From a virus (Duplodnaviria > Heunggongvirae > Uroviricota > Caudoviricetes), in IMG/VR virus record IMGVR_UViG_2896595138_000010, positions 1 through 7,873 of that record: DNA of 7,873 nt; one strand, 5' to 3'. Below are positions 1-5,537 of the stretch, one piece after another. Position 1 is the first letter of the stretch, and each line of letters opens with the position of its first letter. The notes beneath the pieces were generated by a model, which saw nothing but the letters and a program-made list of their open reading frames with translations, had not been told where the DNA came from and did not search any database. A program made the position numbers and the translations under genes.

Positions 1-204
1 TTACGTATTTCGATTTGTTCTGGTGTTATCGGAGAGGCTTGGTGTTTTGCCCTGACGCTCATCACGCAGTTGTTTGACCCATCTTGTCATTGTGGAAAGG
101 CCAACATCCATAGCTTTGGCGGCATCTGCCACCGTGTATTTCTGGTCAACAACCAGTTGAGCGGATTCGCGTTTAAACTCTGCGCTAAAATTTCTTTTTT
201 TCAT
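1..204 (-). pseudogene. insN: IS911-type OrfA (HTH transposase subunit), apparently frameshifted after about residue 55 and ending prematurely at bases 1-3
   Basis: ATG at 204-202 (minus); the first 55 residues match IS911 OrfA as I recall it; the tail [12 protein letters not shown] departs from the recalled [13 protein letters not shown] continuation, consistent with a 1-nt loss in an A-run near plus 39-40. Recalled reference, not verified. Confidence 0.55.
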
Positions 205-276
205 TGGAGCACCTGTGTTGTTCTGAGGTGAGCATATCACCTCTGTTCAGGTGGCCAAATTCAGTGTGCCACTTCA
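1..276 (-). mobile_element. IS911-like (IS3 family) insertion sequence, left-end fragment; the rest lies beyond the window start
   Basis: Minus-strand terminus at 276 reads TGAAGTGGCACACTGAATTTGGCCACCTGAACAGAGG, a TG-initiated IS3-family inverted repeat, followed by an orfA whose product ([55 protein letters not shown]) matches my recollection of IS911 OrfA. Confidence 0.8.
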
Positions 277-494
277 AAAACAATTTCGACGCGTTTCTTG
301 CTCTGACACCAGAAACAAAAGCAGAACGGATGTACCGACGCGATATACAACTCGCGCTAAAACAGGAGAAGGACCGAACAAACGAAACAGCAATGAGACC
401 GTTGCGAAAAGCGACAATAGACAAATTCCCTGAATATATCGACCCGCGCCTGCGTAATTACCGCTCACGCTATGGCGCTATCAGTAATGACTGA
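277..494 (+). CDS. hypothetical protein, probably a 3' fragment of a gene truncated at its 5' end by the IS911 insertion
   Basis: Open frame runs without a stop from the IS911 terminus to TGA at 492-494; the only internal ATG (330) has no convincing Shine-Dalgarno; the frame is contiguous with downstream same-strand genes. Confidence 0.3.
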
Positions 495-504
495 GGAATT
501 TACC

Positions 505-672
505 ATGAGAGGACTTGCATACAATCCCGGCATTCTTCCGGCAGAAATGATTATTCGCCAACGCGTAAAGCCAATGCCATCGAGAGAGGAATTGCTTAAG
601 AGAAATTCTTTTCCGTCAGTGAATCAAAACAAATATCTGAATGCTATGTGGCGCAAAGGAGGCAAACAGTGA
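505..672 (+). CDS. hypothetical small protein (55 aa)
   Basis: ATG 505 preceded by GAGGA (494-498, 6-nt spacing); its stop TGA 670-672 overlaps the GTG start (669-671) of the next gene (GTGA overlap), suggesting translational coupling. Confidence 0.45.
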
Positions 673-1215
673 GCGAAATTGACTATCAGGCACTGCGTGA
701 AAAGGCAGAGAAAGCAACGTGGGGTGTGTGGTCGCTCGAATATGGAGAGGAGAAACTTGATGCTGATGATGCGCTAATTCACCGTGAAGTTGTTGGATAT
801 CTTCCTATTTGCAGAATTGAAGGAGCGCATCCTGAAAGCGGTTTCGATGAAGATTTCCAAATGGAACAGCAGGCCAATGCTGAATTCATCGCCGCAGCCA
901 ATCCGGCTACTGTGCTGACACTGCTGAGCGAGCTGGAAACAGCAAAAAAGCGCATAGCAGAACTGGAAGCCAAACCTGTAAGCCAGACTTACAAGTTGAA
1001 TGAGATGTCGGGCAACTCTCCGGTAATTCCGGATGGTTGGATAAGCTGTAGTGATCGAATGCCTGAAAAGGGCCAGAACGTACTTATTTCGGTGAATTTC
1101 GATAGCTCTCTGGTTGAACCGCTAATATGCTCCGCACGCTATACCGGAGGTACATTCCGGCGTGGAGATGTAACGGTTAAGCCAGGTAATGGTATTGAAC
1201 AGGCAACCCACTGGA
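669..1215 (+). pseudogene. Ead/Ea22-like (DUF551-type) prophage protein, 5' portion (182 codons), interrupted by IS2
   Basis: GTG 669 with AGGAGG at 657-662; product carries motifs I associate with the Ead/Ea22 family (ALREKAEKAT.G.W, ANPATVLTLLSELETAKKRIAELEA, GWISCSDRMPEKGQNVLIS). Native frame stops at ...ATHW, where the IS2 terminus begins. Confidence 0.7.
1211..1215. repeat. IS2 target-site duplication CTGGA, left copy
   Basis: CTGGA immediately outside the IS2 left terminus (TAGACTGGCCCC at 1216); identical CTGGA at 3852-3856 immediately outside the right terminus. Confidence 0.8.
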
Positions 1216-1402
1216 TAGACTGGCCCCTGAATCTCCAGACAACCAGTATCACTTAAATAAGTGATAGTCTTAATACTAGTTTTTAGACTAGTCATTGGAG
1301 AACAGATGATTGATGTCTTAGGGCCGGAGAAACGCAGACGGCGTACCACACAGGAAAAGATCGCAATTGTTCAGCAGAGCTTTGAACCGGGGATGACGGT
1401 CT

Positions 1403-1405
1403 CCC
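1403..1405. repeat. IS629-like target-site duplication CCC, left copy
   Basis: CCC directly abuts the TG...CA termini of the nested element at both ends (1403-1405 and 2709-2711); IS3-family elements make 3-bp duplications. Confidence 0.65.
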
Positions 1406-1447
1406 TGAACCGCCCCGGGTTTCCTGGAGAGTGTTTTATCTGTGAAC

Positions 1448-3840: not shown

Positions 3841-3851
3841 GGGCAAATCCA

Positions 3852-3856
3852 CTGGA
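3852..3856. repeat. IS2 target-site duplication CTGGA, right copy
   Basis: Identical to 1211-1215 and directly abutting the IS2 right terminus. Confidence 0.8.
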
Positions 3857-3891
3857 TGCCGCTACCAGAACCGCCGCAGGAGGTGAAGTGA
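3857..3891 (+). pseudogene. 3' remnant of the Ead/Ea22-like gene (last 11 codons, MPLPEPPQEVK*)
   Basis: Removing IS2 and one CTGGA copy joins ...ATHW (1204-1214) to MPLPEPPQEVK* in frame, restoring the HWMPLPEPP C-terminal motif I associate with DUF551. Confidence 0.7.
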
Positions 3892-4286
3892 TGGACGATA
3901 ACAGCGATAATGTTATCACCCTGGTGCAGCCAAAATCAGAGGAGGAAGGACTTCTCAACGTTGTGATAACCGACAGAAAAAGCGTCGAGCAAAAATGCTG
4001 TCAGCATATCCGTACAACAATTTCAGAAGTGAATCGTACGATTACCTGCAACCGATGCGGATTGGCTTTAGATCCATTCGAACTTGTTCTCGACCGCGCG
4101 AGAAACGGCGAAAACATCGTGTCTGAGATTAAATCACTTTATGCAAAGCGGGACGCTCTTCGAGAAGCTGTGGCAAAACTTGAACGTGAAGAGAAAAACG
4201 CCAAAGCGCGGTTGCGAGCAGCCAGGACAGCGATACTGTATGCGGAGAATGACCTTAAAAATATTGAGCGGGAGGTGAATCAATGA
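3891..4286 (+). CDS. hypothetical protein, 131 aa: acidic N-terminus, Cys-rich segment (CC-x-H...C-x2-C), C-terminal coiled-coil-like region
   Basis: ATG 3891 with AGGAGG at 3878-3883 (7-nt spacing); the start overlaps the Ea22 stop (TGATG). The ORF track's upstream extension to 3825 reads through the IS2 terminus and is rejected. Confidence 0.6.
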   Translation: MDDNSDNVITLVQPKSEEEGLLNVVITDRKSVEQKCCQHIRTTISEVNRTITCNRCGLALDPFELVLDRARNGENIVSEIKSLYAKRDALREAVAKLEREEKNAKARLRAARTAILYAENDLKNIEREVNQ

Positions 4287-4366
4287 CCTGGCCTGAAGCA
4301 TTCAAAGAGGTAGGAACCGCACTGGCGGTGGCACTGATGATGTATTCGATTTGCCGCTGGAGATAA
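4283..4366 (+). CDS. candidate small hydrophobic peptide, 27 aa (MTWPEAFKEVGTALAVALMMYSICRWR)
   Basis: ATG 4283 overlaps the stop of the preceding gene (ATGA); GGAGG at 4271-4275 with 7-nt spacing; one predicted membrane-spanning stretch. Too short for the ORF track. Confidence 0.3.
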   Translation: MTWPEAFKEVGTALAVALMMYSICRWR

Positions 4367-4370
4367 AGGA

Positions 4371-4613
4371 ATGTTCGCTCTGATTCAACGTGGTCAGATA
4401 TACACCGATAGCGCTGGCTATCCAGTAAAAATCATTCGTAGTACTGATCACTCAGTATTCTTCAAGAGGATGGATGGCTATCCTGGAAGGGTGTGCATCA
4501 GAAAATTCAATAATTTATTCGAACACATTGATCACAGAGAATATCACCAGATCCTGGCTGAAACAGAGCAGGAGAACCATCTGAAAAAATTACGTGCCAT
4601 GCAAAGGAGATAA
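4371..4613 (+). CDS. hypothetical protein, 80 aa
   Basis: ATG 4371 with GGAG at 4359-4362; same strand and tight spacing with its neighbours; no family recognised. Confidence 0.55.
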   Translation: MFALIQRGQIYTDSAGYPVKIIRSTDHSVFFKRMDGYPGRVCIRKFNNLFEHIDHREYHQILAETEQENHLKKLRAMQRR

Positions 4614-4755
4614 GCCGATAAAGGTGTTTGAGATAAAGGTGAATATCGGCAATGAATAACAATCCTCGCACTCGCGGGGATTTCTTTTATCTGAACTCGT
4701 TACGGCGAGTTCACCGTCAAGCTTTCTTCAATGCAAAAGCCAATGTGAGGACGCT

Positions 4756-5537
4756 ATGAATACTCAAATTTCTGTCGAAACACTTTCACCAATCACCTAC
4801 AAACAAACCAACGTCATCACCAGCGAACTATTGGCGCAGTTGTACGGAACGGATGTTGTGCGCATCCGGCAAAACCATCATGAAAACAAGTCGCGCTTTG
4901 TTGAGGGGTACACTTCTACAAGGTCGTTGGTGACGAGCTGCGCGCGCTAAAACACAAAGTAGCTTTAAACTACTTTGTGAAAATTGCCCCAAATGCACGC
5001 CACCTCATCCTCTGGACAGAGCGCGGAGCCGCCCGTCACGCGAAGATGCTCGAAACCGATCAGGCATGGGACGTGTTCGAAAAACTGGAGGACGGCTACT
5101 TCAATCAGCGCGAAAAGGTTGCCAACCATCCTCAACCAGTACCGCAACCAGAAAGTAGCCTAGACCGTGCGCGAGCCATGGAAATAGCTTTGAACGTGGC
5201 GGATCGACTGGTGAATATGTTCCCGAATCTGTCCTCAGAATCAAAGCAGGCAGCAGTAGCTGGAGTGTTCAACCCGATTGTTGGTCGCGATGTTGTACCT
5301 CTGCCAGCTATCTCAGAGCACTACTACTCTGCTACGGAAGTCGGCCAGCGCTACGGTATTTCAGCCAACAAGGTAGGACGCATAGCCAACACCTACATGC
5401 TCAAAACAGAAAAGTACGGGAAGTGGTTCATCGACAAATCGGCGCACAATGACAAGCAGGTTGAAACATTTCGGTACAACGAGGCTGGAGTGCACAAAAT
5501 AGAGGAACTCATCGAAGGAGAGCGAAAGGCTGCATGA
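4756..5537 (+). pseudogene. phage antirepressor-like protein (ORF6N/Rha-type N-terminal domain plus KilAC/ANT-type C-terminal domain), disrupted by a frameshift near 4903
   Basis: ATG 4756 with GAGGA at 4746-4750. The N-terminal 64 codons (frame 1) and the C-terminal 186-codon frame (frame 0, open from 4905) align continuously to the intact paralog at 5863-6519 if one nucleotide is restored at about 4903-4904. C-terminal motif YYSATEVGQRYGISANKVGRIANTYMLKTEKYGKWFI resembles the KilAC/ANT domain. Confidence 0.7.

Follow-up and report, generated by a model that had tools for sequence, protein, structure and literature searches.

The window analysed here, a stretch of 7,873 nucleotides, carries IS and phage genes with several broken reading frames, most of them at short runs of identical bases. 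This raises the question of whether the mobile DNA is decaying or whether the sequence itself is wrong. The window is an exact match, from position 9333, to the corresponding locus (L014) of CP026845.1 (GCA_002950375.1), a 4.93-Mb Shigella chromosome. The frameshifts are very probably of two origins: two are real, inherited deletions, and five are consensus errors of one long-read assembly.

The reference copies of IS2, the IS629-like element and IS911 came from Escherichia coli (L001 and L002), and L003 served as the intact related prophage. The closest sister locus, L004, differs from the window by 3 SNPs and a 20-bp indel, and is thus not identical to the source. The other sister loci include L006 (CP026877.1), L010 (a draft) and L015, an Illumina/Logan contig (ERR200280).

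Nested IS elements in a prophage remnant

The genes and elements of the window are as follows.

1..286, minus strand: IS911 remnant comprising its left inverted-repeat end and 5' orfA, 98.6% identical to the L002 copy
213..494, plus strand: phage anti-RecBCD (Abc2-like) gene, truncated and adjoining the IS911 end (PF11043 on the L004 equivalent, 9545-9826)
670..1256, plus strand: DUF551/Ead-Ea22 phage gene split by IS2, its ORF tail running into the IS2 left inverted repeat
1216..3851, plus strand: IS2, by BLAST to the annotated L001 copy, with 1330 bp of its own sequence (canonical length 1331)
1406..2708, minus strand: IS629/IS1203-type element of the IS3 family in IS2 orfA, 1303 bp, 99.0% identical to the 1310-bp element of L001
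4371..4613, plus strand: DUF4222 phage gene, intact (PF13973), the exact protein being found on 141 contigs
4756..5537, plus strand: ORF6N-domain antirepressor-like gene with a G4 run at 4905-4908, called as fragments of 64 and 186 aa
5863..6519, plus strand: second antirepressor paralog, intact (Pfam ORF6N and P22_AR_C), the exact 218-aa protein being found on 19 contigs
6604..6822, plus strand: lambda-type excisionase xis, intact, a 72-aa ORF (PF07825 on the sister-locus gene)
6800..7873, plus strand: lambda-type tyrosine integrase int, intact, the exact 357-aa protein being found on 98 contigs

The window is a cryptic lambda-like prophage remnant, riddled with IS elements and bounded by the IS911 remnant; homology to the intact prophage L003 restarts at about position 287. 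The IS629-type element lies inside IS2 orfA, and IS2 in turn lies inside the DUF551 gene. Both insertions are flanked by target duplications, which for IS2 is 5 bp (ctgga at 1211-1215 and 3852-3856, read from the sequence) and for the IS629-like element 3 bp (ccc at 1403-1405 and 2709-2711). IS2 orfA is split by the nested element, and orfB (2935-3840, 301 aa) is intact. When complete E. coli RefSeq genomes were searched with the whole window, no record reached a coverage of at least 80%. There is nothing biologically new at this locus.

IS629/IS1203 elements are about 1310 bp long, duplicate 3 bp of target, and have orfA and orfB joined by a -1 programmed frameshift. The window copy has the IS3-type inverted repeats, the ccc duplication, an intact A6 site, and orfA and orfB; it is 99% identical to the 1310-bp reference element of L001, which is annotated as 'IS3 family transposase, programmed frameshift'. 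The alignment of the two contains 7 gap bases in 4 openings, and the window copy would be 1306 bp long once the artefacts described below are repaired. A preliminary description of the window, made from its sequence, had set the 1303 bp against a length of 1310 bp, which is indeed that of the annotated intact E. coli copy.

Deletions common to sister assemblies

An inherited lesion should recur in related assemblies. The same lesion was found in sister assemblies at positions 39 and 2132, and for none of the five one-base contractions in the window. In the IS911 orfA, the lesion is a 2-bp deletion at 39-40 that reduces T4 to T2 on the plus strand and appears as a single 2-base gap against L002. 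It produces a premature stop codon, which coincides with the start of the window, and the resulting OrfA* (67 aa) is recorded from a single contig. L004 and the draft L010 share the state of the window, while L006 has TTTT at the same locus and an orfA of 100 aa. Since independent sister assemblies (L004 and L010) carry the same lesion, the IS911 deletion is, on this comparison, real and inherited decay.

The second such lesion lies in the orfB of the IS629-like element and falls outside any homopolymer.

2131..2132, minus strand: 4-bp deletion (ACGC on the plus strand), the bases absent relative to L001 and L002

The state at 2132 is identical to that of the window in L004, L005, L006, L007 and the Illumina/Logan contig L015, and the frame of orfB still shifts here after the three artefacts in the element have been repaired. 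Because independent sister assemblies, Illumina-derived contigs included, carry this deletion, it is real and inherited, and the transposase is truly inactivated. The window copy of the IS629-like element is therefore non-autonomous.

One-base contractions private to CP026845.1

Five sites in the window (1224, 2294, 2478, 2629 and 4905) are private to CP026845.1, and at each of them a G/C 5-mer is reduced to a 4-mer. Four of these lie in IS DNA.

1224..1227, plus strand: C4 run in the IS2 left inverted repeat, private C5 to C4
2294..2297, minus strand: C4 run in the IS629-like orfB, private C5 to C4 on top of a real A-to-C substitution
2478..2481, minus strand: C4 run in the IS629-like orfA, private C5 to C4
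2629..2632, minus strand: G4 run near the 5' end of the IS629-like orfA, private G5 to G4

Every sister locus that covers 2294, 2478, 2629 or 4905 has one base more than the window. At 1224, C5 is present in all ten sister loci (10/10) and in E. coli IS2 copies. The contraction there gives the DUF551::IS2 fusion ORF a different end; the fusion as it stands in the window, P0077 (195 aa), is found on one contig only, and the same fusion with C5, P0079 (198 aa), on 17. The product of the uninterrupted DUF551 gene is P0078 (193 aa). The loss at 1224 is judged to be an assembly artefact, and the IS2 left inverted repeat is most probably intact in the real strain.

The case of 2294 is complicated by the substitution. 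L004, L006 and L015 have CCCCC here, and L005, L007 and L001 have ACCCC; compared with the canonical IS, the window thus seems to have lost a lone A, whereas compared with its nearest sisters, which carry the A-to-C change, it shows C5 reduced to C4. At 2478, C5 is found in L001, L002, L004, L005 and L015, and CCTCC in L006. At 2629, G5 is found in L001, L002, L004, L005, L006 and L015. The contig L015 spans the same nested IS copy together with its IS2 junction, and reads C5, C5 and G5 at the three sites. Adding one C and one G to orfA yields a 108-aa OrfA identical to the gene called on this Illumina contig. All three contractions (2294, 2478-2481 and 2629-2632) are accordingly judged to be artefacts, and the 108-aa orfA is most probably intact in the real strain.

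Outside the IS elements, the ORF6N antirepressor gene is fragmented into 64 and 186 aa because of the G4 run at 4905-4908, a private G5 to G4 change at which L003, L004, L005 and L006 all have G5. Each fragment is found on one contig only. With one G inserted, the gene encodes a 260-aa protein, P0023, which occurs exactly on 32 contigs; the contraction is thus judged an artefact, too, and the antirepressor is most probably intact in the real strain.

The breaks that had been proposed from the sequence alone are, with adjustments, all present. In the IS629-like orfA they lie at the C4 run 2478-2481 and at a G4 run that belongs at 2629-2632 rather than 2626-2629, and the break placed near 4903 in the antirepressor paralog falls at 4905-4908. 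Those placed near 2290 and 2135 in orfB exist at 2294 and 2132, and that near 39-40 in IS911 exists as well; two were mistaken for 1-nt losses, the lesion at 2132 being one of 4 nt (ACGC) and that in IS911 one of 2 nt (T4 to T2). Homopolymer under-calling, raised there as an alternative to decay, is supported at about 2290, 2478-2481, 2626-2629 and about 4903, four of the six listed positions, while 39-40 and 2132 are decay. It is supported as well for the contraction at 1224-1227, which was missing from that list. IS2 insD, xis and int are intact as described (301, 72 and 357 aa), but the contrast with the broken genes is trivial because insD and xis are without any G/C 5-mer, and int has one, C5 at 6836, which was spared, as no other G/C 5-mer of the window was.

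Indels were tallied by homopolymer context over 20.6 kb of the locus against L004. Four more C runs (C5 or C4) are privately one base shorter in the unique chromosomal flanks, at positions 2020, 17525, 17618 and 19134 of L014, as confirmed against L004, L010 and L006. One base is lost at 7 of 14 G/C 5-mers and at 2 of 54 G/C 4-mers, and G/C 3-mers (0/292) and A/T runs of 3-7 bases (0/664) are unchanged. For runs of at least 5 bases, the difference between G/C (7/14 contracted) and A/T (0/73) is far beyond chance (Fisher p = 6e-7). No insertions (+1 events) occur over the 20.6 kb. The frameshifted products are each restricted to a single contig, and intact neighbouring proteins are found on 19-141 contigs. 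CP026877.1 (L006), a control from the same accession series, is free of private homopolymer indels over this region. The losses are thus private, contradicted by independent assemblies, exclusively -1 events in G/C runs, and present in unique as well as repeated DNA, which is the pattern of a homopolymer artefact.

It could be argued that all the frameshifts are real mutations, for example through slippage in a mismatch-repair-deficient or long-stored stock undergoing ongoing pseudogenisation. Real pseudogenes and decayed IS copies abound in Shigella genomes, and the window itself has two lesions shown to be real. Slippage during replication, whether or not mismatch repair is at work, acts on A/T runs as well, yields insertions and comes with many more transitions. 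This signature (+1 and -1 events, hits in A/T runs, an excess of transitions) was not found in the 20.6 kb, where nine private indels stand against at most 3 private SNPs, each indel being a -1 event in a G/C run of 4-5 bases; none of the 664 A/T runs (73 of them at least 5 bases long) is hit, and conserved unique genes (arnA and the start of mdtB) are affected as well. That all the frameshifts are real is therefore very unlikely. A strain with a real process that specifically removes a single base from G/C runs of 4-5 bases, which would make the frameshifts real and very recent, is highly improbable. Such a process might be, for example, a polymerase or repair defect of an unusual kind, or damage over decades of storage. 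The reverse possibility, a correct window set against sister assemblies and references with over-called runs, has in its favour only the formal symmetry of a pairwise comparison. The longer runs are seen in at least 10 independent loci, which come from different projects and platforms and include Illumina-derived contigs, as well as in E. coli reference IS elements whose annotation is that of intact copies, and full-length ORFs identical to widespread proteins are obtained only with them; over-calling is scarcely credible. Programmed frameshifting or phase variation was also considered and rejected, given that both IS2 and the IS629-like element keep their A6 slippery sites unchanged and that the affected sites are ordinary G/C 5-mers, some of them in non-coding DNA.

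The mechanism offered by the preliminary description was a failure of short-read polishing in multi-copy IS elements, that is, errors specific to IS and prophage repeats through ambiguous read mapping. Four of the nine contractions do lie in IS2 or IS629-like DNA, and the prophage segment is present in two copies in some S. boydii genomes. The contractions are also clustered: none of the 6 G/C 5-mers upstream of the window is contracted, compared with 7 of 8 from position 10556 of L014 onward. This is not what a purely random error per run predicts, and may point to a local cause, for instance a lower usable coverage where repeats abound. However, the other five contractions are outside IS DNA: one each in ORF6N, arnA and the start of mdtB, and a pair between int and mdtA, of which one falls within the ibs/sib repeat. 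The restriction to G/C runs indicates a bias of chemistry or consensus rather than mis-mapping, and a second copy of the junction protein was not found in CP026845.1. Repeat-specific error is thus unlikely, and the polishing mechanism, in the form proposed, is not supported. Because most of the contractions fall in unique phage or chromosomal DNA, the defect would be one of the assembly consensus in G/C runs and not of the IS elements.

The preferred explanation is thus that the consensus of one long-read assembly called G/C 5-mers as 4-mers at 1224, 2294, 2478, 2629 and 4905, and that the same error also strikes unique chromosomal genes outside the window, without being tied to IS elements. 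Assemblies made from PacBio RS II reads alone show systematic single-base deletions in G/C homopolymers (PMC8574707, the ARAMIS study); the affected runs were of 4-6 nt in two high-GC bacteria, and G/C deletions occurred in E. coli too. The CP026845.1 assembly is most likely PacBio-only. The platform, and hence the error mechanism, is taken from the accession block, in which CP026832 is described as a PacBio sequence of Kim et al. 2018. The private nature of the lesions, their base and length specificity and the outcome of repair are established. The calls of artefact rest on sister strains rather than on reads of the CP026845.1 strain itself.

Consequences and comparison with known systems

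The value of these results is practical, not biological. The G/C runs of the public CP026845.1 chromosome seem to hold numerous false frameshifts, among them, in the 20.6 kb, those in arnA, at the start of mdtB, in an IS transposase regulator and in a phage antirepressor. Counts of pseudogenes, inferences about IS activity and cgMLST or allele calls made from this record would be inflated or in error. As to the locus itself, the nested IS629-type copy most probably has an intact orfA, but its transposase is truly killed by the 4-bp deletion; the IS911 remnant is a case of true decay, and the ORF6N antirepressor should be treated as intact.

The gene order of int, xis, the ORF6N/P22AR antirepressors, DUF4222, DUF551, DUF2737 and Abc2 is that of the intact E. 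coli prophage L003, and these genes, lambda-type int and xis among them, relate the locus to the cryptic lambda-like remnants of Shigella and E. coli (int-xis arm). The difference is that everything beyond abc2 is replaced by the IS911 remnant adjoining chromosomal genes. This remnant of an IS3-family element retains the left end and orfA at the identity to L002 given above, and differs from that copy in its real 2-bp deletion, common to L004 and L010.

In the window IS2, also of the IS3 family, is complete at its ends, has an intact orfB and is flanked by a 5-bp target duplication; it departs from canonical IS2 in the interruption of orfA. The E. coli loci L001 and L002 show a similar nesting with another insertion point. 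That theirs is the same composite element was rejected, as the alignment puts the insertion elsewhere in IS2, and the nesting in the window is therefore independent of the L001/L002 event. The nested element resembles IS629/IS1203 in its TGAACCGCCCCGGG termini, its 3-bp target duplication and its orfA/orfB with an A6 slippery site; it differs in a real 4-bp orfB deletion and, in the record, three 1-bp losses judged artefactual.

The contractions resemble the PacBio RS II errors (PMC8574707) in being -1 only, in affecting a fraction of the G/C runs of 4-5 bases and in creating false pseudogenes. They differ in their high rate at this locus, half of the G/C 5-mers in 20.6 kb, and in their clustering, with the platform here deduced from the accession block.

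Layout of the remnant and its lesions

Protein and contig look-ups assign the window to NCBI assembly GCA_002950375.1, and window base 1 corresponds to base 9333 of L014, the 20.6-kb source locus, in a chromosome (CP026845.1) of 4,932,934 bp; an exact-protein look-up places its relatives in Shigella boydii and S. dysenteriae. The window begins with the stop codon of a frameshifted IS911 orfA call (1-3) and ends with that of int (7871-7873), so it was evidently cut along gene-call boundaries. The prophage is a remnant. Left of abc2 the source locus has only the IS911 remnant and then chromosomal genes, and right of int it has an ibs/sib region followed by mdtA/mdtB. 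Pfam assignments were drawn from the gene tables of the fetched loci.

Features of the window
1-286, minus strand: IS911 left end and orfA (from ORF listing and sequence)
After the IS911 remnant, left to right: phage early genes, namely a truncated Abc2-like gene, DUF2737, DUF551/Ead
1216-3851: IS2, inserted in the DUF551 gene, target duplication ctgga
1406-2708, minus strand: IS629/IS1203-type element (IS3 family, 1303 bp), nested in IS2 orfA, target duplication ccc
Right of IS2, in this order: DUF4222 gene, two ORF6N-type antirepressor paralogs, xis, int

Lesions were located by aligning the window to L001 and L002, E. coli loci with an annotated intact IS629-type element and IS2, and to L003, an intact related prophage.

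Lesions in the window
39-40: IS911 orfA, 2-bp loss, TTTT to TT on the plus strand
1224: IS2 left inverted repeat, C5 to C4
2132: IS629-like orfB, 4-bp loss (ACGC), no homopolymer
2294: IS629-like orfB, 1-bp loss
2478: IS629-like orfA, C5 to C4
2629: IS629-like orfA, G5 to G4
4905: ORF6N antirepressor, G5 to G4

The preliminary description had placed its lesions correctly and had given the right length for the IS629-like element (1303 bp, against 1310 bp in the reference), but it overlooked the contraction at 1224. Its reading of all lesions as single-base losses at homopolymers holds for most sites and fails at 39-40 (2 bp) and at 2132 (4 bp, outside any homopolymer). The A6 slippery sites of the IS629-like element (2333-2338, plus strand) and of IS2 (2929-2934) are native and unchanged, and do not count among the errors.

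Inherited and private lesions

Only one contig has the 195-aa DUF551::IS2 fusion protein seen in the window, while its C5 version (P0079, 198 aa) is found on 17. Fetching the latter contigs gave 10 sister loci with the same IS2 insertion, and the same nested element is present in all that reach far enough. The IS911 2-bp deletion is common to the window, L004 and the draft L010 in a site-by-site comparison; L006 (CP026877.1) keeps TTTT at the same locus, with an IS911 orfA of 100 aa. The ACGC deletion is common to the window, L004, L005, L006 and L007. These two deletions are ordinary, inherited IS decay.

The remaining sites behave differently. All 10 sisters have C5 at 1224, where the window is one base short, and at 2478, 2629 and 4905 it likewise has one base fewer than every sister covering the site (L006 reads CCTCC at 2478). 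At 2294 the nearest sisters, L004 and L006, have CCCCC owing to an A-to-C substitution, so the CCCC of the window is again C5 shortened to C4. L015, a Logan contig built from Illumina run ERR200280, spans window 1525-2738 including the IS/IS2 junction; it has C5, C5 and G5 at 2294, 2478 and 2629, and it also carries the ACGC deletion.

Adding one G at 4905 restores a 260-aa ORF6N protein identical to one present on 32 contigs (P0023); the two ORF6N fragments called in the window occur on one contig only. With a C added at 2478 and a G at 2629, OrfA comes out at 108 aa and matches exactly the product of the gene on the Illumina contig. When 2294 is repaired too, the orfB frame still shifts at the ACGC deletion, and the transposase of this nested copy is therefore truly dead.

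IS traffic at the locus and its neighbours

The nest of DUF551, IS2 and the IS629-like element (window 670-3856; L004-L011) occurs with the same target duplications and ACGC deletion in two prophage contexts: the remnant adjoining IS911 and mdtA (L014, L004, L006, L010), and a more complete prophage that has cI-like, HicAB and Rha genes, with ipaH after int (L005). L007, L008 and L011 share the left-hand prophage genes of L005 and end before int, and one genome, GCA_000268145.1, has two contigs with the nest (L007, L009). This distribution suggests a duplication, or recombination between prophages. In E. coli CP131_Sichuan and ECCNB20-2 (L001 and L002, both 3001-5644), too, IS2 orfA holds an IS629-type element, at IS2 position ~361 as against ~190 in the window; there IS911, IS30 and IS21 form a deeper nest around it. 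IS2 orfA may be a recurrent target. A 20-bp segment of the IS629-like orfB (CGTACGGACCTTTTTACCCC, window 2018-2037) is found in the window as well as in L005 and L007 but is deleted in L004, L006 and L015. SNPs at 2448 and 2501 group the copies differently, a hint of gene conversion between IS copies. CP026877.1 has an additional IS3-family element interrupting the same int gene (L006 16700-17964) and another IS at window position 416-418, showing continuing IS traffic at the remnant in sister strains.

Outside the window, arnA (L014 1004-2985) is called in three pieces, and only the break at L014 2020 is private; L004 also lacks an arnA call, which suggests that the lineage has a further lesion in common, probably a real one. 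Just past int lie two diverged copies of an ibs/sib-type repeat of ~155 bp (L014 17275-17755), with one private C4-to-C3 contraction inside.

Distribution and origin of the contractions

The whole source locus was compared with L004, L010 and L006 for private losses.

Private losses outside the window
L014 2020: arnA, C4 to C3
L014 17525: C5 to C4
L014 17618: C4 to C3
L014 19134: mdtB start, C5 to C4; called start displaced from its L004 position

When every L004 homopolymer was tallied against the source locus, 7/14 G/C 5-mers and 2/54 G/C 4-mers were contracted, as against 0/292 G/C 3-mers and 0/664 A/T runs of 3-7 bases, with no expansions among the homopolymers tallied (G/C versus A/T, runs of 5 or more bases: Fisher p = 6e-7). 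Within the window 5/6 G/C 5-mers are contracted, the lone survivor being in int at 6836; IS2 orfB and xis look intact by contrast because neither has one. No homopolymer indel in this region is private to L006, which comes from the same accession series; the defect is thus confined to the single record CP026845.1. The contractions are clustered: the initial 9 kb of L014 has 0/6 G/C 5-mers hit, as against 7/8 from 10556 onward. This may stem from fewer usable reads covering the repeat-rich remnant and its surroundings.

The preliminary description had weighed decay against assembly error, arguing that multi-copy ISs polish badly. Private losses in arnA, at the mdtB start and at other flank sites do not support an IS-specific rationale, although lower coverage at repeats, if the cause, would leave that idea a partial role. 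Decay accounts for the two deletions shared with sisters; the five private window sites (1224, 2294, 2478, 2629, 4905) and the four flank sites are most likely assembly-specific G/C-homopolymer under-calls. A real mutational origin of these private indels is very unlikely, since they number nine against at most three private SNPs, none is an insertion and none falls in an A/T run; such a spectrum does not fit replication slippage, whether mismatch repair is active or not. The observed frameshifts are genuine features of the record, a mixture of inherited decay and assembly under-calls without biologically novel content, and frameshifted genes in CP026845.1 should not be trusted as they stand.

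CP026832, in the same accession block, is cited as a PacBio genome of Kim et al., from which we infer a PacBio platform for CP026845.1. The error spectrum (-1 only, in G/C runs of 4-5 bases only, with a fraction of runs hit and genes fragmented) is the same as that described for PacBio RS II-only assemblies (PMC8574707).
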